Assembly (NCBI GenBank): GCA_041653855.1
Contig: JBAZEQ010000001.1
Coordinates: forward strand, 1 to 28,543
DNA: 28,543 nt
Direction of reading: 5' to 3'
Source: Ignavibacteria bacterium
GTDB taxonomy: Bacteria > Bacteroidota > Ignavibacteria > Tepidaquicellales > Tepidaquicellaceae
The stretch's first letter is position 1; each line of letters starts with the position of its first letter. Below the pieces are notes generated by a model. That model had not been told where the DNA came from. It did no database searches and saw only the letters and a program-made list of their open reading frames with translations. The position numbers and the translations under genes were made by a program. Below are positions 1,540 to 28,543 of this stretch, piece after piece.

Positions 1540-1966
1540 ACTAATTCCCATAAAATCCTTTGAATATTATTTTGCTGAGATTACCGAACTTCAGGAAAAG
1601 ATGCAGAGCGAAATAGTAATAATAAACCGGGAAGTTCACGCTGAAAAAGATTTATCTACACTTCGCAACAGATTAGAAATGCTGAATGCTTACAAGTGCA
1701 GATTAAGTTATTTAACTCCATTTGTGCATATACACTATGATATAAAGCTGAAAGAAGTTACAATTGAAGTTCACAAAAAGCTAAGAAAAAACAAAAGTGC
1801 AGCTTACGTAAAAGGATTAATAACAGGAGATATGAGCGATTATAATTATTTAGTAAATGTAACAGAAAGATTAAGTTCACAAATAGAACTACTGAGTAGA
1901 ACAACAATAACAGAAGTTTCTTCATTAACAAAAGAACTACAAACAACAATGATAAATGTTAGATAA
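1532..1966 (+). CDS. hypothetical helical protein (faint UvsY-like character)
   Basis: Likely start is ATG 1532 (MSKLIP), overlapping the upstream stop. All-helical, about 144 aa, in the recombination block. The UvsY resemblance is weak. Confidence 0.55.
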   Translation: MSKLIPIKSFEYYFAEITELQEKMQSEIVIINREVHAEKDLSTLRNRLEMLNAYKCRLSYLTPFVHIHYDIKLKEVTIEVHKKLRKNKSAAYVKGLITGDMSDYNYLVNVTERLSSQIELLSRTTITEVSSLTKELQTTMINVR

Positions 1967-2255
1967 GAAAGAAATACCGGACAAAATAAAGAAGCATTTT
2001 AAACAAAAATATTTTAATAAATATTATAAAAGGACTATGAATACAGTGGCAAAAGTTAGTGAAAATCCTAAAAAAAATAATGTAATTAAAATTACCGAAG
2101 GTACAGATACATATTATTATTCCTTGAAAAGTATTCCGAACACATTTAAAGTACCTTCGGTAGAAAATGCAGACCGGATGCCTGAGAAAGTTGCAAACAC
2201 AATGTCAAAATATTTAACTATGTTACAGGTAGAAAACGAGATAATTGCATTATGA
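1956..2255 (+). CDS. hypothetical protein
   Basis: 99-aa ORF overlapping the upstream gene end. Confidence 0.6.
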   Translation: MLDKKEIPDKIKKHFKQKYFNKYYKRTMNTVAKVSENPKKNNVIKITEGTDTYYYSLKSIPNTFKVPSVENADRMPEKVANTMSKYLTMLQVENEIIAL

Positions 2256-2358
2256 CTAAGCAGATAATTATAAGTTCACACAAAAATTACACTATATACT
2301 ATTATAGAATACGAAATTATTTAATTGATATTTTTTTAAACTAAAACAGAGGTATAAA

Positions 2359-2937
2359 ATGAAAGAAAGAAACGTAGATTATCCGGGCAAAGTTCACAAT
2401 TTTGTTTTTGTTAAGGATTTAAATAAGAACGAAGCACTTTATAAATGTAAGGATTGTGGATTAGAAGGTGTGAGATTTCAACAAAGTAAATCCCTTATTG
2501 TTGTATTGAATAAAAAGAATAAAGGATTAATAGATGTTTGTAAGAAAGATAAAAAAGAAGAATCCCCACAAGTATCAAAAGGGAGTGAATACTTACGATA
2601 TGATTTTTCTACCGAAGAATTATCGGGGATAGCAAAAGAACTCGCACAGGAGAACCTTAAACTTGAAAAAGTTAAACTCGAAAAGAAAAGTGCAGATGCA
2701 GATTTTACAAACAAAATCAAAGCATCAGAATTAAGCATTTCGCAAAATTCTCAAAAACTAAATTCGGGATGGGAAATGAGAAATGTTGATACAGAAACAA
2801 CATATAATTACCCGGAAGAAGGTATGAAAACAAAGCAACGTATGGACACAGGGGAAAAATTCACTGCCGAAAAGATGAAAGATGAAGATTTTAAATTGTT
2901 TTACGATGAAAATAAAGAGGAATCCGGGAAGAAATAA
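2359..2937 (+). CDS. hypothetical protein with N-terminal CxxC and central coiled coil
   Basis: SD-like GAGGT upstream, YKCKDCG motif, and stop overlapping the helicase ATG (TAATG). Confidence 0.7.
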   Translation: MKERNVDYPGKVHNFVFVKDLNKNEALYKCKDCGLEGVRFQQSKSLIVVLNKKNKGLIDVCKKDKKEESPQVSKGSEYLRYDFSTEELSGIAKELAQENLKLEKVKLEKKSADADFTNKIKASELSISQNSQKLNSGWEMRNVDTETTYNYPEEGMKTKQRMDTGEKFTAEKMKDEDFKLFYDENKEESGKK

Positions 2938-5900
2938 TGCAGATAATCCCTCGATATTATCAGGAGAAAGCGGTAAGACAGGGCAAATGGTACTTTGAAA
3001 ATTATCATAAACCATTTGTCCTGGTACTTCCGACAGGATGTCATACCGCAGGATATCCAATATTAACCTACGATGGTAAGTTTATTAACGTAGAAGATAT
3101 TAAAAAAGGAGATTTACTTATCGGTAGAGATAGCACTCCAAGAAAAGTATTAATGATAATAAGCGGAAAAGGTAAAATTTATAGAATAACCACTATAAAA
3201 GGTGAAAGTTTTGAAGTAAACGAAAATCACATATTGCATCTTGAAAGAACAAACACAAGGACAAACAGAAAACAGGATTATAAAGAAGAAGAATTAAATG
3301 TATCAGTTAAAGATTATCTTGAATTTCCGAAAAGCAAAAAGCACGTTTACAAATTAGTAAAAACAGGCGTTCAATTTCATTATGTAAATGAAGAAGGATT
3401 ATTCCTTAATAATACAGTATTAGAACCATATTATTTGGGTTTGTGGTTAGGGGATGGTGATAGTAGAAATCCTTCCATAACAAATATTGATAAAGAAATT
3501 ATAGATTACATTAAAGATTTTTGCGAAAAAAATAAATTAAAATTTAACTATAAAGCTGATAAAAGATGTAGCATAGCAGGGACAACGAAAATACCAAGAA
3601 AAGAAAAAAACTTTAACATTTGTTGGCATATTTTAAATAAATATAATTTATTGTTAAATAAACATATTCCACGCAAATATTTATGTGCAAGTAAAGAAGA
3701 ACGATACTCTTTGTTGGCAGGGTTAATTGATAGCGATGGACACCTTGATAAAATAAAAAATTGTTACGAAATAACATTTAAAGATTATATATTAGCAAAA
3801 GACGTTCAAAGATTATGCTTAAGTTTAGGACTATATGCAAGTTTTAATGAAAAGAATTTTATATTTCGGGGTAAACCATACAAAGCATATAGAATGAGTG
3901 TGTCAGGTTTTGGACAAGAAAAAATACCGTGTAAAGTAGAGCGTAAAAAAGCAAGACCACGACTACAAATAAAAAATCCGTTACGTTTTGGTTTTAAAGT
4001 AGAATATCAAAGAGAAGATTATTATTACGGTTTTGTGTTAGACGGAGATAATCTATATGTTGATGGGAATTTCTTCATACAACACAACTCAGGCAAATCA
4101 GTCTGTATATCCGAACTATGCCATCAACTCGATGAACCGATACTTATACTACAACCAACGCAGGAGATACTCGAACAAAACTATCAGAAACTACAAAACT
4201 ACGGAATAACCGATATAGGAATATACTCAGCAAGTTTCAAAAGAAAAGAAGTAGAAAAGTTTACTTATGCAACAATAGGCAGTATTTACCGGAAACCTGA
4301 GTTATTCAAACACTTCAAAAAAGTGATAATTGATGAATGTGATTTGGTTAATCCGAAGAACATTAAAGGGATGTATAACAAGTTTTTCAAAGCAATTGAC
4401 TGTAAAGATATTTGTGGACTGACAGCAACTCCATACAGAATGATGCAGAAATTTTTTAAAGAAGGAGAGGATTTATTTTATACATCATCACTTCAAACAA
4501 TTACAAGGATTCATCCCTTCTTCTTTAAAAAAATAGCATACGAGATTTCTATAAAAGAGTTAATGGAAAAAGAATATTTGGCTAAACTCGATTACAGGTA
4601 CTATAAAGATTTTGATACAAGTAAAATAAAGATAAATACAACAGGTGGTGACTATGATGCTGAGGATTTAGAAAGATTTTGGGATGATGAAAGACTGAAA
4701 AAAATGTCAAAAGTGATTTATGATATTGATAAAGAGTGCAATTACAATTTAATATTTTGCAGTTCAATTCGACAGGCAAGTGCAGGATGCGAAATGTTGA
4801 GAGCGATGGGATTAAATGCAGAATACATTACGAGTAAACACAACAATAAAGACCGGGAAAGAATAATAAACGATTTCAGGAACGGAAAAATAAAACATCT
4901 ATTAAACGTTAATGTAATGAGTTGTTTATCAGAAGATACTGAATTACTAACAAAAGACGGTTGGGTAAATCACAATAATATTTCAGACAATTCTTTAGTA
5001 GCACAATATGAAGAAGGTGATATAACATTTGATAAACCTCTTGCCATAATCCGAAAAGATATTAAAAACGAATCTATGATAGAGATTAATGGAAGGTATA
5101 TGTCTTTTTGCGTTACAAAAGACCACGATATGTTAATTAAAAAATATAAATATAGTCCATATTATTATAAAACAAAAGCAACAAACATTATAGATAAAAA
5201 AATTACAGTCCCGGTATCGGGATATGCAGAACCATTTATACTTAAAGTTAAACAAGAAACACTACCAAACAGGGGTAGATTTATTGCCACAAACAAGTAT
5301 AACTATAAAAAGAAATATACAGAAGAAAAAGCAAAATTATTAGCAGAAGAATTATATAACAGAAAAATATCTTTGTGGTATAAAGAAACTGCTGAATTAA
5401 CATTAAACGATTGTATGTTTATAGGTTTTTTCTTGGGTGATGGGAGTAGGTATAAAGTAAACGCAGGTGAAGAAAGATTTACTTTATGCCAATCGTTAGG
5501 TACTCCGAATATGATAAAATGGATTGAAAGACTTTTAAAAGAATGTGAAATAGATTATCACAAAAAGGATTACCCACCTCAGAAAATTAAGATAAACAGC
5601 AAAGTAACAATGAGTAAAGGATTTAGAAGATATATATTGTGCAAAGGTACAGGGGGACACGGACAAACAAAAAATGGAATATATAAATATCTACCATATC
5701 TAAAAAAGAAAGGGACAAAATTATTTTGGGGACTTAATATAGCACAATACTATTCTTTAATGACCGGATTATGGAAAGCAGACGGTGTTCATAAAGATAA
5801 TAACGTTTATAACGGTGGTTGTATCATTGGACAATATAAGGAGTTGTTTGATTTATTACAGGCAATTGGAGTATGCAGGGGATTTAAAGTAACGATTAGC

Positions 5901-7457: not shown

Positions 7458-7883
7458 ATGTTAATAAAAATTTTAGAAATAAAAGAGACCGAAGAAGAAG
7501 TTAGAAAAGATATACCGTTTATTGCAAGAGTAAAAAATCAATTCAGCAATGACACAGTTATATTTTTTGGTGATGAAAGACCCTTGGATTGTAGCAATGT
7601 TATAAAAGAAGAAGCAGAAATAAAAAGGTTAAGAAAACATACTAAATCAGGAGCATTTAAAGAGTTAAGATATGTAGTATTCGGAGACAAAGAGTTGTTT
7701 AATCTTTTGCAAGAAGCATACCAAAACGATGCCGAAATAAAAGCAAACGCATCACTCAGAGAAGAAAAACTTAAAATGGGATTAATCAGAGAGCGTATGT
7801 ATGATTGGTTTAAAAGTTTGAAATGGTATGAGAGGTTATTTTACCCATTATTAAAAAATAAATTTAGCAATATTAAATTTTAA
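7458..7883 (+). CDS. hypothetical protein
   Basis: 141-aa ORF starting 3 nt after the helicase stop. Confidence 0.65.
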   Translation: MLIKILEIKETEEEVRKDIPFIARVKNQFSNDTVIFFGDERPLDCSNVIKEEAEIKRLRKHTKSGAFKELRYVVFGDKELFNLLQEAYQNDAEIKANASLREEKLKMGLIRERMYDWFKSLKWYERLFYPLLKNKFSNIKF

Positions 7884-7887
7884 AGCT

Positions 7888-8535
7888 ATGAATAACGAAA
7901 AATTTTTATTTGATATGTTTTGCAATCCCGAACTCGGGAGCGATACAGGGAAAGCAGTTCTCATAGAACCATACGGAATTGTTTATAAAGAGAATATATT
8001 TATTGTAGCAACAGATAGATTTACTTTACTGAAAGTTCCGGTAGAACTCACAACACAAAATAGAACTTACAAAACCTTTGCAGGGGATGATTTCAAGAAT
8101 GTTCTCGATAAAGTTGTTTATAACGTTAATATACCACTCAAAACAGATTTAATAAAAGATGTATTAGACAAACTTCCGAAAACAGATATAGAAGATTGTC
8201 CGGTATGCAAAGGTGAAGGGTTAGTAAGCACAAAAATAATAGATGAAGAAGTTGTTTGTGAGAAGTGTAATGGTGATGGGCATATTCACTTAGAAAAAGG
8301 TGCAGAAAAACCGGACTATCGAGTAAGAATAAAACTATTAGAAGCAGTATTTCAGGCAAGATATTTAAAAAGGTTATATGATGTTACGGAGATATTCAAG
8401 ACCGATGAAATAATAATAACAGCAAATCACAGCAATACAGCAAATGCCTTCTCAGTTTTACAGCACATTGAAGTAATACTGATGCCTGTAAGACAGGGTG
8501 AAGGAATGGAAATAGAATCGGAAATTAAAATATAA
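7888..8535 (+). CDS. DNA polymerase sliding (beta) clamp-like protein with DnaJ-type Zn finger insertion
   Basis: IVATDRFTL resembles the beta-clamp VATDGHRL. FQARYL...VILMP resembles the clamp C-terminal FNxxYL...MP. CPVCKGEG and CEKCNGDG are two CxxCxGxG repeats. Confidence 0.55.
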   Translation: MNNEKFLFDMFCNPELGSDTGKAVLIEPYGIVYKENIFIVATDRFTLLKVPVELTTQNRTYKTFAGDDFKNVLDKVVYNVNIPLKTDLIKDVLDKLPKTDIEDCPVCKGEGLVSTKIIDEEVVCEKCNGDGHIHLEKGAEKPDYRVRIKLLEAVFQARYLKRLYDVTEIFKTDEIIITANHSNTANAFSVLQHIEVILMPVRQGEGMEIESEIKI

Positions 8536-13972: not shown

Positions 13973-14383
13973 ATGAAAAAAATAGTAATGTTCTTTGTTT
14001 TGATATTCCAATTTATCGGATTATCATTCCAAAGAAAAGTATTTGCTGAAGAAGATAATAAATATCAATCAGGAGATTGTGAAAACACAAAAGCACCGAT
14101 AAACTTATCTTTCGGTGATGCACTCCAACTTATGAAAAGCGGACACAAAGTTTGCAGAGAAGGATGGAACGGAAAAGGAATGTGGATATGTATAGGTAAT
14201 GGGATTTGTGAATTAGAAGCTGATAAATTTTGGAACGTGCATACAAAAGAATTTGCAAGGTCTAAAGGTGGGAGTGCTGAAGTATTACCATATATCATTA
14301 TGAAAACTGCTGACAATAAAGTATTGATGGGATGGTTAGCAAGTCAGACCGATATGTTGGCGAATGATTGGATGTTAGTTTAA
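13973..14383 (+). CDS. DUF2829 (Thoeris anti-defence Tad2-like) protein with hydrophobic N-terminal extension
   Basis: SFGDALQLMKSGHKVCREGWNGKGMW and GWLASQTDMLANDW are the DUF2829 hallmarks. SD AAGGA upstream. Confidence 0.8.
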   Translation: MKKIVMFFVLIFQFIGLSFQRKVFAEEDNKYQSGDCENTKAPINLSFGDALQLMKSGHKVCREGWNGKGMWICIGNGICELEADKFWNVHTKEFARSKGGSAEVLPYIIMKTADNKVLMGWLASQTDMLANDWMLV

Positions 14384-15023: not shown

Positions 15024-15278
15024 ATGAAAAAATTTATAATTTTTCTTATAGTATTATTAGTAATAGCAGATTGCTATATGTATTATAGCATAATAGATAA
15101 AGAGAATGAAATTTTAGAGAAAAAAGATACTACTATAATGATTCTCAAATCTATTAAAGAATACTTAGCAGCAGAAAAACCGGACAAAGCAGATGATACC
15201 ACCGGGTATTACAGAGTTTTAATAAAAATTGATACAGCAAAAAGTTACAGAGACACTATAAAAGTAAAATTAAAATAA
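15024..15278 (+). CDS. hypothetical protein with N-terminal TM/signal anchor
   Basis: MKKFIIFLIVLLVIADC, with a purine-rich SD upstream. Confidence 0.65.
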   Translation: MKKFIIFLIVLLVIADCYMYYSIIDKENEILEKKDTTIMILKSIKEYLAAEKPDKADDTTGYYRVLIKIDTAKSYRDTIKVKLK

Positions 15279-19747: not shown

Positions 19748-21343
19748 ATGCCGGATTACGTTATTGATTGGAACACTCGTGAACTCAGGATGGTAGTTAA
19801 ACCGCAAAAAGGCGGACAGGAAGAATATTTAAAAATTCCTCTTAATGTATTTGAAGCACTATATTATGGGGATATAGGTTCAGGTAAGAGTTGGAACTTG
19901 GTTATTGACGCATTAGGATTACAATATGAAGGCACGATAGGGAAAAAAGCAATTGACTTTCCGAACTATAAAGGATTTCTATTCCGCAGAACTTCTAAAA
20001 GATTAAACAAATTAGTTGATGAGTGCAAATCGTTCTATGGTTATTATGGCGGAGTATATGCAGGGACCAAACAGAACGAACCGGGAAGTAGTTTTACATT
20101 CCCTTCAGGAGCAAGAGTATTCTTATGTTATATGGAACACGAAAAAGACAAGTTCAACTATCACGGTGAAGAAGCACAATTTATGGGATTTGATGAAATA
20201 ACAGAATTTCTTATAACTCAGTATAGTTTTCTATTTTCAAGATGCAGAAGCACATTACCCGGTATAACTCCACGTATAAGAAGCACTGCAAATGCAATTG
20301 GACTTGGTTTAAAATGGGTAAGAAACAGATTTATATATAAAAATCCAATTGGATTAGTAAAATATTTTCTTCCACCTAAAGACATCGAGAAAGACCCCCG
20401 GGGGCAAGAAGTAAAACAAGGTACTCCGAAATCATTATCGAGGATGATAATTCACGGAAAGATTAATGACAACAAAATATTATTGAATAACGACCCTGAT
20501 TATTTGGATAGAATTTATGCAATGGGAGAGAAATATGTAAAAGCACTATTACAGGATGATTGGTTTGCATTTGAAGGACAGGCATTTGATAAACTATCTC
20601 GTAAAATTCACTTAGCTCAACCTCTTGATATTCCGAAACATTGGAAACGAATTGCAGGATTAGATTATGGAAATGTTGCTGCGTTGGAATGTTTGGCATT
20701 CGACCCGGATACAATAACAAGCAGTAATCCGATGGGAAACGGATATTTCTTCGATGAATGGACATCGGATAACCAGGAGAGAGACACAGAAATTGACAGC
20801 TTAAAATACTACCTAAAAGAAAACGGATTAAAAGACATTACAATTGCATACGATACTGATATGGAAAGTACAGACAGTAAAGTAAAAACAAACAAAACCG
20901 CAGCTTGGTATTTTAAACACGATACAAAATACGGATTCAAATTAAAGATGGTCCCGGTATCAAAAGGAAGAATCGAAACAAATGTAAACTTTAGAATCAG
21001 TTGTAACAGAGAATTTTGGAATAGATTGGATTGGAAGAAAAGCGAAAATGGATTATGGCTTAAAAAACCAAAACTATTCTTTTTAGCAAAAGAAAAATTT
21101 ACAATCCCGGATGAAGCAGTGGCTAAGTGTGATAATCTATTTGAAAGTATGTTTGATTTAATGGATGACCCGAACATTCCCGAAGATATACTTAAACCAA
21201 AAGACGGTGGAGTACCTGACCATCACTACGCAGCAGGTAGATACGCACTTATAACCGGAGTATATCGAGGTGAACTAACCGAAGAACAAGTCAGTGAATT
21301 AGAAGAAGAAAACAGGCAAGACTTTATAGAAAGTGTGGTATGA
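19748..21343 (+). CDS. terL: terminase large subunit
   Basis: YYGDIGSGKS Walker A, GFDEITEF Walker B, RSTAN coupling motif, AGLDYG nuclease Asp, C-terminal DHHYAAGRY. Confidence 0.9.
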   Translation: MPDYVIDWNTRELRMVVKPQKGGQEEYLKIPLNVFEALYYGDIGSGKSWNLVIDALGLQYEGTIGKKAIDFPNYKGFLFRRTSKRLNKLVDECKSFYGYYGGVYAGTKQNEPGSSFTFPSGARVFLCYMEHEKDKFNYHGEEAQFMGFDEITEFLITQYSFLFSRCRSTLPGITPRIRSTANAIGLGLKWVRNRFIYKNPIGLVKYFLPPKDIEKDPRGQEVKQGTPKSLSRMIIHGKINDNKILLNNDPDYLDRIYAMGEKYVKALLQDDWFAFEGQAFDKLSRKIHLAQPLDIPKHWKRIAGLDYGNVAALECLAFDPDTITSSNPMGNGYFFDEWTSDNQERDTEIDSLKYYLKENGLKDITIAYDTDMESTDSKVKTNKTAAWYFKHDTKYGFKLKMVPVSKGRIETNVNFRISCNREFWNRLDWKKSENGLWLKKPKLFFLAKEKFTIPDEAVAKCDNLFESMFDLMDDPNIPEDILKPKDGGVPDHHYAAGRYALITGVYRGELTEEQVSELEEENRQDFIESVV

Positions 21344-21963
21344 TGTTAGAAATAAATAAAATACTTCTTGGCGACTGTTTAGAACTTATGAAGGAAATAC
21401 CTGATAAGTCTATTGATTTGATATTGGCTGACCCTCCGTATGGAATGGGGGAAGATGGAGGAAAATTTCGGGATAGAAAAGGTGGAGGACATAGAATTTT
21501 GGTTAAAAAAGATTGGGATAAGAAAAGACCTGATAAAATTTATTTTAAAGAAATTATTAGAATAAGCAAAAAGCAAATAATATTTGGGGGAAATTATTTT
21601 ACAGATTATTTACCTGTAAGTAGAGGATGGATTTATTGGAGAAAACTTATGGGCGGTGATTTTTCTGATGGTGAATTAGCTTGGACAAGTTTTGATAGAA
21701 CATTGAAAGAATATACATACTGTAATAAATATAAAGGGAAAAACCACCCCACGCAAAAACCTGTTAAACTTTTTGAAATGATTTTAAAAGATTACAGCGA
21801 AGAAGGTCAAACAATCCTTGACCCTTTTAGTGGCAGTGGCACAACTGCAATTGCTTGTCATAATTTAAAACGTAATTTTATTTGCGTGGAAAAAGACCCT
21901 GAATATCATAGAAAAAGTATAGAGAGATACGGAAAACATATTTTACAAGAAAGGATGTTTTGA
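21340..21963 (+). CDS. orphan amino-DNA methyltransferase, beta class (DPPY, probably m6A)
   Basis: ILADPPY, HPTQKP, LDPFSGSGTT in beta motif order. Confidence 0.9.
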   Translation: MMLEINKILLGDCLELMKEIPDKSIDLILADPPYGMGEDGGKFRDRKGGGHRILVKKDWDKKRPDKIYFKEIIRISKKQIIFGGNYFTDYLPVSRGWIYWRKLMGGDFSDGELAWTSFDRTLKEYTYCNKYKGKNHPTQKPVKLFEMILKDYSEEGQTILDPFSGSGTTAIACHNLKRNFICVEKDPEYHRKSIERYGKHILQERMF

Positions 21964-22754
21964 CAAACTATTTGAATAAAATATTAACAGGCAGAGCAGA
22001 AATCGTTTTAAAAGATTTCCCGGACAATTGCATTGATTTGGTTGTTACGTCTCCCCCTTATGATGGTATAAGAAGTTATGAAGGATATATCTTTGATTTT
22101 CCACTGATAGCAGAGCAACTATTCCGAACACTAAAAGTTGGCGGAGTTATTGTGTGGATAGTATCAGATGAAACAACAGACGGGAGCGAATCCTGTACAT
22201 CTTTTAAACAAGCACTGCATTTTAGGTCCCTTGGATTAAAACTTCACGATACAATGATATGGAGAAAATCTTCACCACCGCTTTCTCATAACAGATACGA
22301 ACAGCACTTTGAATATATGTTTGTGTTTAGCAAAGAATACGTAAAGACGTTTAATGCTATCAAAGAACCGAAACTTTATATGGATAACAGAAAAGTTAAA
22401 GATTATAGAAGAAACGTAAAAGAAGGATGTGATAACGGATTTATAGGACAGCAAAAAGATAAAATAAAAGGAAACATTTGGGATATTCCGGTAGGTGGCG
22501 GAATAACTACACCGGATAAAGAAGCATACGAGCATCCTGCTATATTCCCGGACAAACTTGCAAAAGACCATATATACAGTTGGAGTAATGAAGGTGATGT
22601 TGTTTTGGACCCGATGTGTGGAAGCGGAACAGTCCCGAAAATGGCGAAACTTCTACATAGAAACTACATTGGTATAGACATAAGCAAAAAGTATTGTGAG
22701 TTAGCAATTAAAAGAATTAATAAACATAAAATACCAAATGAACTCTTTAGATAA
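21960..22754 (+). CDS. orphan amino-DNA methyltransferase, beta class (SPPY, probably m4C)
   Basis: VTSPPY, HPAIFP, LDPMCGSGT. TTG start overlapping the upstream TGA. Confidence 0.9.
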   Translation: MTNYLNKILTGRAEIVLKDFPDNCIDLVVTSPPYDGIRSYEGYIFDFPLIAEQLFRTLKVGGVIVWIVSDETTDGSESCTSFKQALHFRSLGLKLHDTMIWRKSSPPLSHNRYEQHFEYMFVFSKEYVKTFNAIKEPKLYMDNRKVKDYRRNVKEGCDNGFIGQQKDKIKGNIWDIPVGGGITTPDKEAYEHPAIFPDKLAKDHIYSWSNEGDVVLDPMCGSGTVPKMAKLLHRNYIGIDISKKYCELAIKRINKHKIPNELFR

Positions 22755-22965
22755 TTGTAAGCATTGGAAAAAAGATTCTTTCCTGAAAAACTACGGTACT
22801 TGTAGTAAGAAAACAAATATATGTCAACCCGGCAATACAAGACGAGAACCAATTGCATCAAACGACAGTAGCTTTCAAGGTAGCAGATTAAAATTAAAGA
22901 GAGACTTCAGAGAAATAGAACTCGTAAAAGAAGGTTGTAATTGTATGTATAAAAAAAACACTTGA
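22738..22965 (+). CDS. small Cys-containing hypothetical protein
   Basis: NCKHW...GTC...C...CNC pattern, overlapping the MTase end. Confidence 0.5.
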   Translation: MNSLDNCKHWKKDSFLKNYGTCSKKTNICQPGNTRREPIASNDSSFQGSRLKLKRDFREIELVKEGCNCMYKKNT

Positions 22966-22990
22966 CATTTAATTATGTATATAGTAGATT
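22962..22990 (+). promoter_or_regulatory. sigma70-type promoter
   Basis: TTGACA-N17-TAGATT. Confidence 0.65.
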
Positions 22991-23139: not shown

Positions 23140-23499
23140 ATGACATTATTAGAAGAAAGAGAATTAAAAAAGGGGAAAGAATTGGAGAGTGATATTTCGT
23201 CTGCAAAAAAAAGATTAGAAAACGCTCAATTTATTTATTCTTATTGTGTTGAGGATAAATACAATATGTGTAAAAGTAATTACAGCGATAGAATAGATTG
23301 TCCGAATGAGAGGGTGGTGATAAAAGCAGAGAATAGAGATAGCAGCAAGGTTATTTATTTAAAAGATAAAAACATAAGTAAAGTATTTCTTCAGCTTATT
23401 GTTACAAAGTATGAAGAAGAACTTGCAAAACTCGAAAAAGAGTTTGCTGAACTCCCGGCAGAGATAAGTGAAAACAAAGAAGTAGATCCAGATGCCTAA
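23140..23499 (+). CDS. hypothetical protein
   Basis: Strong SD AAGGAG. Coiled-coil ends around a Cys-containing core. Confidence 0.7.
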   Translation: MTLLEERELKKGKELESDISSAKKRLENAQFIYSYCVEDKYNMCKSNYSDRIDCPNERVVIKAENRDSSKVIYLKDKNISKVFLQLIVTKYEEELAKLEKEFAELPAEISENKEVDPDA

Positions 23500-23676: not shown

Positions 23677-23711
23677 AAATCCCACTACAAATTAATAGTG
23701 GGATTTTTTTT
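23677..23711 (+). terminator. intrinsic terminator
   Basis: AAATCCCACTA-CAAATTAA-TAGTGGGATTT stem followed by a T run. Confidence 0.8.
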
Positions 23712-23862
23712 ATGCGAAAATAAGCAATTTTTGAGGGGGAGAGAGTGGGAGAGGTTAAAATAAGGAATTTTCACAGGAAATAAATTTTGTTAGACAAAAG
23801 ATTTTATTTGATTTATTGATTATTTTTGTAGTATTATTTTATTAATTAAAATATTTACTACA

Positions 23863-24381
23863 ATGAAGAAGTCATTCAGAAATTTCACAATCATTTTTAC
23901 AATACTATTTGTATTGGTTTTAGCATTTATCACATCACAAACAAAAGAAGTAAAGGCAGACCGGCAGACCTCAGCCTGGTTACAAAAACACATCATTGAC
24001 AGTTTGATTACAGGAGATAGTATTCTTGTAATAGACTGTACCTTTCAACAGAACGTAGATTGGTATGATAATGTTGAATTCACTTTAAAAGGGAACGGAG
24101 CAACATCGCAAACCGACAGTGCAGACACAGTAAAAGTATATTCATTTCATACAAACGGAGCAGGAGATACTATCAGGTCAGTTCCGGTAGCAGTCACAAA
24201 CTTAGCAACACTCACACAAACGAAACCGGGAATATTAGCAATAGCAAACGGAACATATTCAAGATTTAAGTTTGAAGGTGATATACATTATTACTATGTT
24301 TTTGTATGGGATAACAAATCATCAAAGAATATAATCATAGATTATGCAATGAAGAAAAGCACATACACAAAGTATTATTAA
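23863..24381 (+). CDS. exported/membrane-anchored beta-rich protein
   Basis: MKKSFRNFTIIFTILFVLVLAFITS signal/TM segment, beta-strand-rich mature part. Confidence 0.75.
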   Translation: MKKSFRNFTIIFTILFVLVLAFITSQTKEVKADRQTSAWLQKHIIDSLITGDSILVIDCTFQQNVDWYDNVEFTLKGNGATSQTDSADTVKVYSFHTNGAGDTIRSVPVAVTNLATLTQTKPGILAIANGTYSRFKFEGDIHYYYVFVWDNKSSKNIIIDYAMKKSTYTKYY

Positions 24382-24493
24382 CAATATTAAGCGGTCCCGG
24401 GAAAAGAGCTAAAAAACTACGCTCATAAATAATCCAGGAGACACGAAAAAAGATAAAGCCATACAATAACATTAGGTAAAAGGAGTAAAAATA

Positions 24494-24910
24494 ATGAAAT
24501 TTCAAAAGTTGTTAATAGTTCTGATGATGCTGATAGCAGTACAAAGCTATTCACAAATCACATTGTATAAGCAGGACACTTTAAGCAAAACACAATCATC
24601 CGTAACATATAATTTAGCAGGGACCTATTACCGGGCAGAGTTATATTGGAAAAGCGACACAGCAATTTACGGAGCAGACACAATCAGGATCGAAAGAATC
24701 GGGGTTGAAGGTGATACCTCGATAGTGTATGGATTGGACAGCAGCAATACAAGAGTAGATTATTTTCTCAATGCAGGAGATAATAAATATAAGAATATTC
24801 GGATTGATGCATTTCTTTCAGAGCGAATAAGAATTGTGTTTAGTAATCTAAATATATATACAAACAAAATACCGTTTGTATTTAAGTTAGTTAAAACAAA
24901 TGTGTATTAG
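24494..24910 (+). CDS. signal-peptide-bearing beta-rich protein
   Basis: SD AAGGAG. MKFQKLLIVLMMLIAVQSYS|Q. Confidence 0.75.
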   Translation: MKFQKLLIVLMMLIAVQSYSQITLYKQDTLSKTQSSVTYNLAGTYYRAELYWKSDTAIYGADTIRIERIGVEGDTSIVYGLDSSNTRVDYFLNAGDNKYKNIRIDAFLSERIRIVFSNLNIYTNKIPFVFKLVKTNVY

Positions 24911-24919
24911 GAGAAAAGA

Positions 24920-26512
24920 ATGAAAAAATTATTTATATTAATATTTTTAGCTATAACCATAAACGCACAAAGTCAATGGGAAGTATGGAGTAAAGCAAAC
25001 GTTCAACCATCCAACACAACATATAACCAAATTGTAAATGCGATAAACTCAGCAACTCTCACAACAGGGTCTTTATATAAAATATCGGATTACGTAACGA
25101 AGCATATCATTCCCGGGACATCAACAGTTAATACAGGAACGGTAGAACCGATTGTAGTAATAGCAACTTCATCGAATACAATCAGTAAAACAGCTTACAG
25201 CATCACTTATCCGAAAGACTACATTGAATATGATTATTCCTTAAATTTGTGTGAAGATGGAATAACAGCACGAGCAGGATTCATTACAAAAAGAATAGAT
25301 AACATTGGCAATGATACTCCGTATGATATGCGGAATGTAAAATTCCGTAGGTGGGGAATAGATTGGACTTCATACAGTAACGATTCACTATGGAATGCAG
25401 AAAGAAATTATATAGTTGGTAATATAGTCAAAAGTTATAGGAATGGTGATACTGCATTATTTTTATGTGTTTGGAATAGATTGGCAGTTGCTGATTCAGT
25501 ACCTCAAATAGACACTATGCATTGGCAGAGAATAATAGGGAACGAGCAGAAGTGGTGCAGTAAAACCACAGGCAATTATTTTTACGGAAAATCTCTCGAT
25601 GCAATTGCAAATTACTACATCGATTATTACACATTTGCAGATACCAGCTGCAGGGGTAATAAAATCGAAAAATCAATTACAGGTTTAAATAATATTGTTA
25701 TGATGGACAGGAACAATTATTTAAACACATTTGAAAAGGACTGTTATAATATAACCCTCTATCGAGGGAGTTATAAAAATTCATTTGGGAAAAGTAATTA
25801 TGAAATGATATTGATTGATTCGTGTTATTTTAACACTACCTTTCAAAACGTTTCAAGGTGCATAATAAAAGGATATGAGAATACGTTAGGCATAACTTGT
25901 TGGGGAAACGTTATATATTCATCCGATAATCTTTTTGGGGTAGGGTGCACAAAAAACGTAATTGGAGATAATGCGAACTACTGCACATTTGGAAATAACA
26001 GCTCAGGAAATATACTTGCAGATAACTGCCATAATGTAACATTCGGAGTTGCATGTAGTTTTAATCACTTAGGACCCGGGAGTTATGTATGCAGATTCAA
26101 CAGCGATAGTTTCAACAATACATTGGGTAGAGACTCATATTCTTGTATATTTGAGATTGATGGATGTTATAATACATTTGGGGATTATTGTTATTCCAAT
26201 TACATCGGGATAAAATCATACACAAACACATTCGGGCATCAATGTTCAATGAACATAATAAAGAATTGGTGTTCAAATAATACATTTGGGGCAGGTTGTT
26301 ATTTAAACACGCTCGGGAGTTACTCTTCTGATAATACAATCCCTGCAAGTAGCCGAGTCAATTTATTCATGGATTACATAAATTCTAAAGACTTCACCGG
26401 AGCAACACAGTTAGCAGACAGTTACAGTAAGATAATTATGAATAGTAATGCGAATGCAAAAGAGATTTGGATATCAGCAGGTGGAACGTGGTATAAATTC
26501 GCAACTCCATAA
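24920..26512 (+). CDS. signal-peptide-bearing parallel beta-helix protein (tail-fibre/adhesin-like)
   Basis: SD AGGAG. MKKLFILIFLAITINA|Q. CBM5/12-like WNAERNYIVGNIV...PQIDTMHW segment and NxFGxxCxx repeats. Confidence 0.75.
   Translation: MKKLFILIFLAITINAQSQWEVWSKANVQPSNTTYNQIVNAINSATLTTGSLYKISDYVTKHIIPGTSTVNTGTVEPIVVIATSSNTISKTAYSITYPKDYIEYDYSLNLCEDGITARAGFITKRIDNIGNDTPYDMRNVKFRRWGIDWTSYSNDSLWNAERNYIVGNIVKSYRNGDTALFLCVWNRLAVADSVPQIDTMHWQRIIGNEQKWCSKTTGNYFYGKSLDAIANYYIDYYTFADTSCRGNKIEKSITGLNNIVMMDRNNYLNTFEKDCYNITLYRGSYKNSFGKSNYEMILIDSCYFNTTFQNVSRCIIKGYENTLGITCWGNVIYSSDNLFGVGCTKNVIGDNANYCTFGNNSSGNILADNCHNVTFGVACSFNHLGPGSYVCRFNSDSFNNTLGRDSYSCIFEIDGCYNTFGDYCYSNYIGIKSYTNTFGHQCSMNIIKNWCSNNTFGAGCYLNTLGSYSSDNTIPASSRVNLFMDYINSKDFTGATQLADSYSKIIMNSNANAKEIWISAGGTWYKFATP
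25880..26340 (+). repeat. 9-aa N-x-(F/I/L)-G-x-x-(C/S)-x-x repeats
   Basis: NTFGDYCYS NYIGIKSYT NTFGHQCSM NIIKNWCSN NTFGAGCYL NTLGSYSSD. Confidence 0.8.
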
Positions 26513-26531: not shown

Positions 26532-26942
26532 ATGGACACAATAAACACAATTCAAAAGTTTCAATCATACGAAGGAATAAATCCTCTCGATGTGATATAC
26601 AACTTCATAATCAGTTATATACTGAGTTGGGAAGTGCTTGTAACGATATTAGTATTTTTAAGTGTGATGGAAACAATCAAGTATTTCAGTGAAGGGACAA
26701 AGTATGGATTTGAAATGAATAAAAAATTGTATGGTGGATTATCTATGGCACTGATATTAATAATTGATTACGGATACGGTATCTTCAACGGAATAGAAGT
26801 ATGGAGTTTTAAGTTTTTAGTAATCAAAGCATTTACAATAATGTTCCCGGTGTTTGCATTATATAACATCATCTTAAAACAAATAGCCGAAGGAATCAGA
26901 ACTCGGTTATATAAAAAGATAGAAGAATTCAAAAACAAATGA
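26532..26942 (+). CDS. holin-like membrane protein
   Basis: Likely start is ATG 26532 (MDTIN). About three hydrophobic segments and a charged C-terminal tail. Confidence 0.55.
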   Translation: MDTINTIQKFQSYEGINPLDVIYNFIISYILSWEVLVTILVFLSVMETIKYFSEGTKYGFEMNKKLYGGLSMALILIIDYGYGIFNGIEVWSFKFLVIKAFTIMFPVFALYNIILKQIAEGIRTRLYKKIEEFKNK

Positions 26943-28543
26943 GTGGAATTTTAGCTGACATATACGCAAGAGATTGCAGAAGTTTAAAAGTATCGAATAA
27001 AAAAGATAAAGATATTCTCGATGCTTATATAGACTATTGTATAAAACTTGCTGAGAACGAAAAGATAAACTCAATGATTTATTACATTTGGGGTAAATGC
27101 GAACTATACTACGAAGGACATCAAATCCCGGTTGGAGTATCGAGCAATGCACTATCAGAATGGGTAAAGAACAATTGGAGTAGCAGCAGGATTGATACAA
27201 CAAAGTTTTGGGTACGTAAATCAAAACGAAATCAGATATTCCACGTTGACAATAAAATCACTGATGTTGTTGACGGATTTATTTCTGAATACTCAAAGGC
27301 AGAAAAGACACTGACGGTAGATAATGAAGATGATCCGAAGTATGATAATATTGCAAAGGTAATCAGGAAGTATATTGAGAAGTTGGAAAACAAAACAGAT
27401 AAGCAGGTATGGACAAACACAAGATTACCTTCGATTGAGAACTTCGCATTATACGGATTGGGATGGGATAAAATTGACTTCAATCATAACATCAATGTTC
27501 CGTATGGAGATTTGGAATATGAATCAATACACCCACGAGATATTGACGTGGACCCGAATTGCAGAGAAAAGTATTTCCAGGATGCAAGATTTTTAGTCAG
27601 AAGAAGAAGATTAGAAATCAATGAAGCTAAAGAATATGTAAAGAGATTAGGAAAAGACCCTTCTCAGGTTGTACCGGACAATGATTACTACGGAACAAAC
27701 GATGCAAGGCAAAGACTACGCAACAACAGTATTGATACTCAGATGTTTACAACTTTCTATGAATTCTATTACAGAAAAATATACTCCGATACAAAAACAC
27801 TATACAAAGAACCGAAGTTAAGAGTTCTCGAAGATACGGAATACAGAGAAGATTCTATTTATTACTTCAATGCAATATATAACAAAGCAATGGGAACACT
27901 GCAACATTGGATGAATCCTTATGTTGACAAGAGAAATCACAGGATATGGCAATTCAACTTATTTCCTTACTGCGGTAGAATGAGTAGAGTGAGATTGTAC
28001 CCGGTCAGTATTGTTGAAAGATTACTAAACTTACAGGATATAATCAATGTAACTTTATCACTCGTTCTTGATAATGGGAGACAAAAGAGTTTAGTAAGAC
28101 TTTTAATGGATAAAGCACTCATCGAGAGCGAAGGTGGAAAAATAAACAGCAGATTATTTGATGTATTAAGGAACGGTGGAATAGCAGACATTGATGTAAA
28201 AGGATTAGGATTAAATGAAAATGTAAGACTAAGTGATTTAATACACGAAGTTAAAATAGCAGATTTACCCCCATCAATTGAAAAGTTTCTTGATATAGCA
28301 CTTGAAAGCATTAAATCTCAGGGAATAAGAAAAGAAGCATTAATCGGAGATTTACCTGAAGGAAGTGGGAATTTATCCGGGGTCGCAATAGGCAAGTTGC
28401 AAAAACAAAACAGACAGATGCTATCCGGTTACGATACTAATATAGAATGGGCAGTAACACAAGAAGGAAACTTCGTTTATAAAGTAATGGCAGAGGAATT
28501 CACTGAAGAAGATTACATCAAAATCCAGGACAGGCAGAAAGAC
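26939..28543 (+). CDS. portal protein, P22-like (3'-truncated; absent from ORF track)
   Basis: ATGA overlap at 26939 and 535 open codons to the window end. LYGLGWDKI, SIHPRDIDVDPN...QDARF, LQDIIN and SGVAIGKLQ match podovirus P22-type portals. Confidence 0.85.
   Translation, partial: MSGILADIYARDCRSLKVSNKKDKDILDAYIDYCIKLAENEKINSMIYYIWGKCELYYEGHQIPVGVSSNALSEWVKNNWSSSRIDTTKFWVRKSKRNQIFHVDNKITDVVDGFISEYSKAEKTLTVDNEDDPKYDNIAKVIRKYIEKLENKTDKQVWTNTRLPSIENFALYGLGWDKIDFNHNINVPYGDLEYESIHPRDIDVDPNCREKYFQDARFLVRRRRLEINEAKEYVKRLGKDPSQVVPDNDYYGTNDARQRLRNNSIDTQMFTTFYEFYYRKIYSDTKTLYKEPKLRVLEDTEYREDSIYYFNAIYNKAMGTLQHWMNPYVDKRNHRIWQFNLFPYCGRMSRVRLYPVSIVERLLNLQDIINVTLSLVLDNGRQKSLVRLLMDKALIESEGGKINSRLFDVLRNGGIADIDVKGLGLNENVRLSDLIHEVKIADLPPSIEKFLDIALESIKSQGIRKEALIGDLPEGSGNLSGVAIGKLQKQNRQMLSGYDTNIEWAVTQEGNFVYKVMAEEFTEEDYIKIQDRQKD

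Follow-up and report, generated by a model that had tools for sequence, protein, structure and literature searches.

A cassette of predicted exported proteins, one with a tail-fibre-like body, between the terminase and portal genes of a phage from an Ignavibacteria genome

Tailed-phage particles are taken to be built wholly in the cytoplasm, and phage proteins that carry export signals mostly serve in lysis or exclusion. The phages T5 (Llp) and phi80 and N15 (Cor) encode exported proteins that target, within the envelope, the receptor of the phage itself; the genes adjoin those for receptor binding, and the products guard progeny from debris in addition to excluding superinfection. T5 Llp and phi80 Cor are earlier cases of a receptor being blocked from its periplasmic side. 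The T4 antiholin RI has a cleavable signal peptide and acts in the periplasm together with the holin (PMC8385771). XepA (XkdY/P31, the 'PBSX exported protein') of the Bacillus subtilis prophage PBSX is exported late, is not present in particles and is encoded by a gene between the tail-fibre and holin genes. A role as a lysis effector, assisting envelope breakage for example by membrane depolarisation, has been proposed for XepA; the purified protein is cytotoxic on Bacillus lawns, whereas YomS of SPbeta is not cytotoxic alone (PMC6834076). Prophages of Porphyromonas gingivalis encode Q-rule leader proteins of unknown function, and capsid proteins flagged with signal peptides were also reported for its phages (PMC10367356).

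We analysed a stretch of 28,543 nucleotides (the window), which forms positions 1 to 28,543 of contig JBAZEQ010000001.1 in the Ignavibacteria bacterium assembly GCA_041653855.1. RpoB of this bin is nearest to sequences from Ignavibacteriales, KSB1 and Bacteroidota MAGs. The window ends within a phage portal gene that continues on contig C112 (window 28390-28543 corresponds to C112 1-154, a 98.7 % match), and 43.6 kb of the phage is assembled over three contigs, its genome being incomplete. Gene coordinates bear out the initial annotation in placing 5.6 kb between terL (end 21343) and the portal gene (start 26939). The features of this region are:

19748-21343, + strand: terL, large terminase gene (phrog_979, E 1.1e-37; tblastn matches are podophage terminases)
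21340-22754: two PF01555 methyltransferases, between terL and portal
23140-23499: orphan ORF of 119 aa, between the methyltransferases and the terminator
23677-23706, + strand: intrinsic-terminator-like hairpin (stem of 11 bp, loop of 8 nt), its T run reaching ~23716, conserved in the related contig L006
23717-23862, + strand: conserved intergenic control region, ~93 % identical to L006
23735-23754, + strand: purine-rich G tract inside the control region
23787-23801, + strand: palindromic box TTGT-TAG-ACAA within an exact 15-mer, inside the control region
23821-23828, + strand: TAnnTTTG-type element inside the control region
23863-24381, + strand: ORF1, 172 aa, an N-terminal leader or signal anchor followed by an orphan body
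24494-24910, + strand: ORF2, 138 aa, a Sec/SPI leader (SYS|Q) and then a predicted single jelly-roll domain of ~118 aa
24920-26512, + strand: ORF3, 530 aa, a Sec/SPI leader (INA|Q), a Gln-Trp cap and a fibre-like body
26532-26942, + strand: ORF4, 136 aa, a holin-like membrane protein whose stop overlaps the portal ATG (ATGA)
26939 to beyond the window edge at 28543, + strand: portal gene (PF16510, E 5.6e-15; phrog_156)

The terminator-like hairpin closes the unit formed by terL, the methyltransferases and the orphan ORF, and with its T run locates at 23677-23716 the terminator previously claimed to precede the three-ORF cassette; the coupling of a holin-like gene to portal was likewise correct. 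The spacer beyond the hairpin retains its similarity to L006 despite a diverged leader immediately downstream, and may function as a promoter. TTGACA-type promoters and Shine-Dalgarno sites are in use in this phage as well, and the idea of a Bacteroidia-type -33/-7 promoter was rejected, as the TAnnTTTG element is present but the spacing of its TTTG is wrong. The exact 15-mer recurs in the whole bin only upstream of the endolysin operon, which lies on a separate contig (endolysin at C146 4072-4764). Late timing is suggested by this shared 15-mer, by the overlap of ORF4 with the portal gene and by a search of the + strand between ORF1 and portal that found no terminator, and ORF1 to ORF4 together with portal appear to form one late operon. 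By inspection of its sequence ORF4 has hydrophobic segments at residues 35-46 and 66-78, plus one at ~93-115, and a Lys/Arg/Glu-rich C-terminal tail, features that would suit a holin, and it matches no family in Pfam, PHROG or NCBIfam. Its start was placed at 26532, since the longer frame, which begins at 26448, would share 65 nt with ORF3.

One of two options raised by the initial annotation was a superinfection-exclusion or surface-conversion cassette, whose exported products would shield infected or lysogenic cells from other phages by changing or covering the envelope. The layout is moron-like, with a terminator upstream and a conserved spacer, the unit includes an exported receptor-binding-like protein, and the Q-rule leader proteins of P. 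gingivalis prophages (PMC10367356) offer a parallel. We found however no lipobox in ORF1 to ORF3, with Cys lacking at the cleavage site and around it, no PADLOC match, and no integrase or repressor within the window. The cassette is absent from the rest of the host bin and its family was not found in 60 relatives or in 400 genomes of the phylum. Two weak matches within the phylum, confined to the profile's leader portion, were discarded as spurious. Absence from these ~460 related genomes indicates that the cassette is not common prophage cargo. Combined with the apparent co-transcription with portal, the 15-nt box of the endolysin operon and the occurrence of the family elsewhere in late tail or lysis operons, it makes exclusion the weaker of the two options, and we consider it highly improbable.

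Leaders were called by heuristics and conservation. In ORF2 and ORF3 the leader opens with basic residues, continues with 11 uncharged residues as its core and ends in small residues at -3 and -1 (SYS and INA), after which comes Gln. In the host bin [ASG]Q occurs at residues 15-32 in 50 % of leader-like N-termini (249/497) versus 5.6 % of other ORFs, with an overall Gln frequency of 2.5 %, and the N-termini of T9SS cargo likewise show the Q-rule; a Q-value of 77 % has been reported for Ignavibacterium (PMC5837995). The two phage leaders with Gln at +1, already proposed from the sequence, thus match the Q-rule of the host bin. Exposure of Gln by predicted SPI cleavage in phage genes suggests adaptation to the host export route, and is shared with the P. 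gingivalis prophage proteins (PMC10367356). The latter differ in being prophage cargo of a cultured Bacteroidia host, with no relation to tail fibres or XepA reported, and are likened here by description. The bin encodes 122 T9SS C-terminal domains (PF18962, TIGR04183, TIGR04131), none of them on this contig, and neither a T9SS sorting domain nor any Pfam or NCBIfam match at E <= 0.1 was detected in ORF1 to ORF3. A search of the 69 %-complete bin for a plant-type glutaminyl cyclase (PF05096) gave no match, and neither did a Bacteroides control.

The initial annotation had claimed Sec-type leaders for all three proteins, which holds for ORF2 and ORF3 and is ambiguous for ORF1, where a long 18-residue uncharged core with a possible ITS|Q site could belong to either a signal peptide or an anchor. 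The gene caller had placed the ORF1 start at an internal TTG, deleting the leader. The sole relative of ORF1, P0123, retains the same ATG with a different hydrophobic leader and has an internal deletion. ORF1 has no family match in Pfam, PHROG or NCBIfam and no PDB match by profile search, and its comparison with the ORF2 family (hhalign) was not significant, aligning only a short DT..Y..G.GDT stretch.

One crude rule classes 5 of the 38 + strand ORFs in the window as leader-like, three of them ORF1 to ORF3, and leader-like hydrophobic starts are also present on C112 in the probable major capsid protein, which has a strong Shine-Dalgarno motif at its leader-like ATG, and in a scaffold-like protein. 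Since the capsid candidate has one, a leader-like start alone cannot prove export in this phage. The leaders could instead be inner-membrane tethers for assembly or propeptides for a phage protease, leaving the proteins on the cytoplasmic side, a reading to which the anchor-length core of ORF1 and the signal peptides flagged in capsid proteins of P. gingivalis phages (PMC10367356) also lend themselves. The capsid and scaffold-like starts lack the +1 Gln however, while this host-specific SPI mark is present in nine of ten representatives of the ORF2 family and in all six of the Gln-Trp partner proteins described below, and the 11-residue cores of ORF2 and ORF3 are typical of cleaved signals. 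Retention on the cytoplasmic side is accordingly very unlikely in our estimation, and ORF1 to ORF3 probably constitute a late module that is exported and acts outside the cytoplasm.

ORF2 is preceded by a Shine-Dalgarno-like GGAG and belongs to a small family found only in phages, in which the nine representatives with a leader and +1 Gln are only 35-41 % identical to it. Profiles of this family matched no PDB chain at E <= 10, ORF2 matched no Pfam, PHROG or NCBIfam family, and a tightened family alignment retrieved nothing from IMG/VR or JGI metagenomes. The structure model of ORF2 (pLDDT 80) is a jelly-roll, and models confirm for both ORF2 and ORF3 that these are beta-rich proteins. With VIA-align the best fold match of ORF2 is XepA's C-terminal domain (6i56_D; Z 12.0, 115 residues, 3.2 A), followed closely by YomS (6i5o_A; Z 11.9, with 108 of 112 residues at an rmsd of 2.1 A), the next-best match having a Z of 10.4; Foldseek ranks YomS third, below nucleoplasmin cores. 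Jelly-rolls are common, so the modelled XepA-C/YomS-type fold of ORF2 is a resemblance only, at the level of the fold.

XepA of PBSX, which the initial annotation had overlooked, nevertheless appears to be the closest described analogue of the cassette. It is a late phage protein with an export signal, as is predicted for ORF2, and in the siphophage L102 the ORF2-family gene sits, like xepA, between tail-fibre and holin-like genes. In the window by contrast the cassette adjoins a holin-like gene but lies between terL and portal. XepA and YomS form a pentameric disc. ORF2 has no detectable sequence similarity to XepA or YomS and a single domain in place of the two of XepA; its host is a diderm, in which the product would reach the periplasm, and XepA has no large fibre-like partner such as ORF3.

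The analogy raises the possibility that the exported proteins are lysis effectors, placed in advance to disrupt the outer membrane or surface layer, or to depolarise the membrane, at the end of infection. Holin-like membrane genes are linked to the cassette in both complete contexts (ORF4 in the window; 88-aa and 52-aa proteins in L102), the regulatory box is common to the cassette and the endolysin operon, and the modelled ORF2 fold recalls a protein that is cytotoxic in purified form (PMC6834076). YomS, which ORF2 also resembles, is however not cytotoxic alone (PMC6834076), and besides the endolysin C146 already has genes for an i-spanin-like anchor and for another exported protein. Nor would a swappable binding body derived from a fibre be needed in a general lysis factor, and the solenoid of ORF3 is nearest to non-enzymatic adhesins and antifreeze proteins. 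We regard such a role as improbable.

ORF3, preceded by AGGAG, comprises a globular beta domain (~30-210), a beta-solenoid (~245-485) of regular 9-residue repeats with 19 Cys, and a small C-terminal domain. No DNA-level tandem repeat was found beneath the protein repeats. Residues 34-474 (83 % of ORF3) align with the distal two thirds of gp53, a tail fibre of Clostridium phage phiCT453A (KM983327, AJA42543) at 30 % identity and E 3e-34, the alignment beginning at residue 34 of ORF3 and ~168 of gp53. The globular domain and the 9-residue solenoid repeats are common to ORF3, gp53 and ~200 uncultured relatives, which supports the earlier suggestion of a receptor-binding-like protein in the cassette. 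In place of the virion-attachment N-terminus of the leaderless gp53, ORF3 begins with a Sec leader and then a Gln-Trp cap, such that only the leader and ~15 residues of cap precede the fibre-homologous body and a virion-attachment domain is absent. Homologues of ORF3 number 209, and among the 119 listed 118 have fibre-type N-termini in place of a leader. Leaders are kept in the ORF2 family and the Gln-Trp proteins of other phages but not by these homologues of the ORF3 body. The refuting outcome named by the initial annotation did not arise, since the homologues are themselves phage proteins, as opposed to ordinary exported proteins of the host. Structure comparison of the modelled solenoid gave matches of Z 14-20, most alike to non-enzymatic adhesins or antifreeze proteins, and Foldseek returned only weak generic beta-helix or tailspike matches. 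The ORF3-family profile found nothing among PDB sequences, and single-protein IMG/VR scans with ORF3 and with the portal protein returned no relatives. Related reads are present in ERR4515096, ERR4539294 and ERR4524289.

An ORF2-family gene followed by a leader protein with a Gln-Trp mature end was identified at six loci (the window, L004/L006, L102, L104, L105 and L106). The bodies of the six Gln-Trp partners are unrelated to each other, only the cap being common, and two phages with 91 % identical ORF2 proteins have different third genes. From the sequences such replacement appears to be the swapping pattern of host-specificity proteins. The gene order in L102 is tape measure, tail fibre, two leader proteins, the ORF2-family gene, the Gln-Trp protein, and the 88-aa and 52-aa membrane proteins. 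Two candidate additions to the ORF2 family were rejected, the 275-aa leader protein of L102 and the small leader protein encoded upstream of P0021 in L107, both having matches confined to the leader. Gln-Trp as a general host sorting motif was also rejected, since only 9 of the 249 host leaders have Trp directly after the +1 Gln and the QWxxW cap occurs in no host ORF.

These features recall the second of the two options, that of a virion fibre matured in the periplasm, with ORF3 the real receptor-binding fibre and ORF2 its adaptor, docking once the envelope has been opened by holin and endolysin. The homology of ORF3 to the distal modules of tail fibres is genuine, its layout of conserved cap and variable body is that of fibres, it is apparently co-transcribed with virion genes and is the only recognisable fibre on the three contigs, and the pair ends the tail module in L102 and L106. 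The ordinary fibre may however sit on phage DNA that is unassembled, as the genome is incomplete, and in L102, L106 and L107 a leaderless fibre gene lies immediately upstream, making the exported protein there an extra. The cap is only ~15 residues long with no virion docking partner known, assembly after lysis must work amid dilution of the cell contents, and particles do not contain the nearest analogue, XepA (PMC6834076). A broader form of this idea, in which tailed phages of Q-rule hosts send a fibre-derived protein and its jelly-roll partner through Sec to fold in the periplasm and join the particle at lysis with the Gln-Trp cap as docking handle, seems to us as improbable as the specific one.

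The reading we prefer, tentatively and at somewhat less than an even chance when taken as a whole, is that ORF1 to ORF3 form a late accessory module, the diderm counterpart of XepA, with a function in receptor or glycan binding. A promoter in the conserved spacer would drive ORF1, ORF2, ORF3, ORF4 and portal as a single late transcript, and the host Sec system would export ORF1 to ORF3. Signal peptidase I would cleave ORF2 and ORF3 before Gln, which the host would cyclise to pyroglutamate. ORF2 would then fold in the envelope as a jelly-roll of the XepA-C/YomS type, and ORF3 would present a tail-fibre-derived ligand-binding module held by the short Gln-Trp cap. ORF3, probably jointly with ORF2, may attach on the dying cell and its debris to the receptor used by the phage or to an envelope glycan specific to the strain, thereby preventing loss of progeny through re-adsorption or easing their release. 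Such a specific receptor-neutralising or release role is itself doubtful.

Until the outer membrane opens, a receptor at the cell surface is out of reach of a protein in the periplasm, which speaks against a receptor role for ORF3, and its standing as the sole recognisable fibre in the assembled 43.6 kb of phage DNA speaks against a role outside the virion. The cassette resembles Llp and Cor in the proposed logic only, that of exported proteins acting in the envelope on the phage's own receptor. Llp and Cor are small lipoproteins made early or by prophages, unlike ORF1 to ORF3 with their large fibre-like body and apparently late operon. The T4 antiholin RI illustrates no more than that phage proteins linked to lysis can be exported; it is small, sets the timing of lysis and has no fibre-like or jelly-roll part.

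Part of the late gene set of this phage therefore seems to act beyond the cytoplasm, the compartment in which virions are assembled. Apparently a genuine tail-fibre module has been relocated behind a host-adapted secretion signal, in a gene pair whose jelly-roll partner is kept in unrelated phages while the binding body is swapped like a host-range determinant. XepA-type exported late proteins have to our knowledge been without a function since the 1980s-90s, and any confirmed role for the cassette, be it receptor neutralisation, an aid to lysis or the periplasmic supply of a fibre, would give them one. In practical terms host-range prediction would wrongly label such genes as tail fibres. If the periplasm-matured fibre were true it would add an extracytoplasmic step to tailed-phage assembly. 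More broadly the cassette would show how phages of Bacteroidota-like hosts exploit the Q-rule export route.

The window corresponds to the complete contig C1, from a 2.47 Mb bin with 69 % completeness, and carries all its genes on the + strand. The initial annotation had placed three leader-bearing proteins within a gap of 5.6 kb between terL and the portal gene; both the gap and the three proteins were confirmed, the leader of ORF1 being the less clear.

5′ of terL, + strand: replication module, several HNH genes, small terminase
19748-21343, + strand: terL
after terL, + strand: two PF01555 methyltransferases
after the methyltransferases, + strand: 119-aa orphan
23677-23716, + strand: terminator-like hairpin between the orphan and ORF1
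23863-24381, + strand: ORF1
24494-24910, + strand: ORF2
24920-26512, + strand: ORF3
26532-26942, + strand: ORF4 (136-aa holin-like protein), stop overlapping the portal ATG
from 26939, + strand: portal gene, ATG overlapping the ORF4 stop

Contig C112 of the same bin carries the continuation of the portal gene (154 nt overlap at 98.7 % identity) and contig C146, which encodes an endolysin, has a 17-nt promoter motif in common with the window, so that ~43.6 kb of this phage are assembled. This motif, AACACTTGACATTTAAT, with a perfect TTGACA inside, has a single copy in the window (22957-22973, ahead of the 119-aa orphan) and three copies on C146 (about 3217, 5938 and 6290); as a sequence signature it ties C146 to this phage and is likely a phage promoter of another class than the 15-mer box described below. 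C146 4072-5669 is probably the lysis cassette of the same phage, encoding the endolysin (phrog_2649) and two further proteins: one of 117 aa, i-spanin-like in having an N-terminal anchor and a coiled coil, and one of 181 aa that combines a Q-rule leader (SYG followed by Q) with a terminal Phe as in outer-membrane proteins. No lipoprotein o-spanin was seen within it.

Leaders were assigned using sequence heuristics in combination with conservation. ORF2 and ORF3 begin with basic residues, continue with an uncharged core of 11 residues and have small residues at -3/-1 ahead of a Gln; ORF1 has an 18-residue core and its start was placed by the gene caller at an internal TTG. In the related locus L006 the DNA 5′ of ORF1 shows ~93 % identity as far as the same ATG, the leader that follows has another sequence with a similar Lys-rich then hydrophobic pattern, and the mature part is near-identical except for a deletion; we therefore assign the ORF1 start to the ATG. 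The leader and first mature residues are sharply diverged (window 23863-23950, L006 263-350) between flanks of 93-98 % identity, and the L006 relative lacks ~57 internal residues of ORF1. Within the host bin [ASG]Q at residues 15-32 was present in 50 % of leader-like N-termini vs 5.6 % of other ORFs, Gln making up 2.5 % of all residues, and type IX cargo N-termini display the same pattern, indicating that the host obeys the Q-rule. This rule has been described for Bacteroidetes and also for Ignavibacterium, with a Q-value of 77 % (PMC5837995). These features point to a host-adapted leader on two of the proteins and probably on the third, and ORF1-ORF3 would thus be exported. The host bin, whose RpoB is ~60 % identical to those of Ignavibacteriales, KSB1, Calditrichales and Bacteroidota MAGs, combines a strong Q-rule with the type IX secretion C-terminal domain, matched 122 times in the bin but never on C1, and SusD was not found in it; the phage itself carries TTGACA-type promoter motifs and Shine-Dalgarno sites.

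A competing explanation is that the leaders are not export signals. Nine of the 57 ORFs on the three phage contigs are leader-like by a crude rule, including two in the early region (window 13973-14383 and 15024-15278). Just after the portal gene on C112, leader-like hydrophobic N-termini are found on a 520-aa acidic scaffold-like protein (1745-3307) and a 458-aa probable major capsid protein (3401-4777), the latter assigned from SU10_MCP (E 0.017) and a tblastn match (4e-7) to a Microcystis phage capsid protein, its ATG preceded by a strong Shine-Dalgarno motif (AAGGAG, 8 nt before). A hydrophobic start alone is therefore weak evidence of export in this phage; both candidates lack the +1 Gln. 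Lipobox-type leaders ending in Cys also occur within virion gene blocks (C112 7027-7476; about 7650-8004 on the contig of the L102 siphophage), where they adjoin the other leader proteins.

ORF2 and ORF3 are preceded by Shine-Dalgarno-like motifs, and no + strand terminator was found between ORF1 and the portal gene. An exact 15-mer, TTGTTAGACAAAAGA (palindrome TTGT-TAG-ACAA), lies in the spacer at 23787-23801 and on C146 at 3250-3264; these two sites, one ahead of the cassette/portal operon and the other ahead of the endolysin operon, are its only occurrences in the whole bin, making it a candidate late operator or promoter element. The gene arrangement places the unit in late-operon and holin-linked positions, and a single late transcript would run from the cassette through portal, co-regulated with lysis. 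A lysis effector is a further rival reading. The spacer also holds a 20-nt purine-only G-rich tract (23735-23754) in a genome of 31 % G+C, largely kept in L006 and unique in the bin.

Exhaustive HMMER searching recovered ten representatives of the ORF2 family (E up to 1.8e-7, nine at ≤1e-10), of which nine have a leader and +1 Gln despite only 35-41 % identity to ORF2. Together with ORF2 these proteins make up a small phage family whose predicted leaders suggest export as the rule. Searches of 60 host relatives, of 400 sampled genomes of the phylum (two marginal hits cover the leader only), of IMG/VR and of JGI metagenomes did not recover the family, which suggests that it is carried by rare phages, probably virulent ones, and not by prophages. 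Gene order on L102 begins with the tape measure (phrog_25241), two tail genes and the tail fibre (phrog_16641). Next come a leader protein of 275 aa, a lipoprotein, the ORF2-family gene and a Gln-Trp protein, and the series ends with a membrane/coiled-coil protein of 88 aa and a membrane protein of 52 aa with two segments. The L106 neighbourhood is similar with two ORF2-like genes. A third type, on a contig from another sample (L099, 3-4721), has a giant virion protein (phrog_9854, the same PHROG as that on C146) and a 245-aa HExxH-motif protein before the ORF2-family gene.

The L102 order is that of prophage PBSX, in which the gene for XepA, the ‘PBSX exported protein’, lies between the tail-fibre genes and xhlA-xhlB-xlyA; XepA is late, exported and absent from particles, its function is not known, and like YomS it forms pentameric discs (PMC6834076). 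The ORF2 model is a single jelly-roll (pLDDT 80) which, in a comparison with 48,161 chains, most closely matched the XepA C-domain (6i56, Z 12.0) and YomS (6i5o, Z 11.9, 108/112 residues at 2.1 Å), followed by a phage baseplate protein (Z 10.4) and many jelly-rolls (Z 7-9). Foldseek ranked nucleoplasmin cores above YomS and no sequence-level link between the family and XepA/YomS was found; at the level of models this is resemblance, not membership.

In every locus with visible downstream DNA (the window, L004/L006, L102, L104, L105 and L106) the gene after the ORF2-family gene encodes a leader and a mature end starting Gln-Trp, usually as two copies of QWxxW, although in ORF3 once and after Gln-Ser. 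Past the first ~40 residues these partners are mutually unrelated except for L102 and L104, and a relative with a 91 %-identical ORF2 has a wholly different third protein. Sequence comparison thus delineates a gene pair that is conserved while the body of its second protein is swapped. An origin of the cap as a host motif was ruled out, as 9 of 249 host leaders have Trp after the +1 Gln and the cap is absent from all host ORFs in the whole bin. The bin likewise has no further ORF2-family member.

Residues 34-474 of ORF3 match the distal two thirds of gp53 of Clostridium phage phiCT453A (30 % identity, E 3e-34), an annotated tail fibre encoded after baseplate genes and before holin and amidase genes. 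The two have this distal body in common; in ORF3 the alignment starts at residue 34. A large protein collection held 209 homologues; among the matches listed, 118 of the 119 others lack a hydrophobic leader and have N-termini typical of fibres, the exception being P0021, with a leader then Gln, whose gene is preceded by a fibre-like gene and by that of a further small leader protein. The AlphaFold model (pLDDT 71.7) has a confident globular beta domain (residues about 30-210), then 9-residue repeats that form a regular right-handed solenoid (about 245-485), and a small end domain; at Z 14-20 the solenoid matches helices of adhesins, antifreeze proteins and tailspikes, a generic fold match. From its sequence ORF3 is a tail-fibre module without the fibre anchor. 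It could alternatively be a virion fibre that matures in the periplasm: no second fibre was seen in this phage, although in three related loci a normal fibre gene lies upstream.

We read ORF1-ORF3 as a putative accessory module, XepA-like in being expressed late and exported. The initial annotation had proposed exclusion or surface conversion, or an envelope-matured fibre; its interpretation is supported in part, and these two readings are kept as rivals. The function of the module we infer throughout: on dying cells ORF3 might bind either the phage receptor or an envelope glycan specific to the strain, limiting progeny loss or easing release, a guess which would explain a fibre-derived body swapped like host-range proteins. 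We group the module, as a variant, with the ‘exported late phage proteins’, a kind so far little understood. Its interest lies in that the exported part, export being predicted, is a tail-fibre module, and that the pair is kept across unrelated phages.
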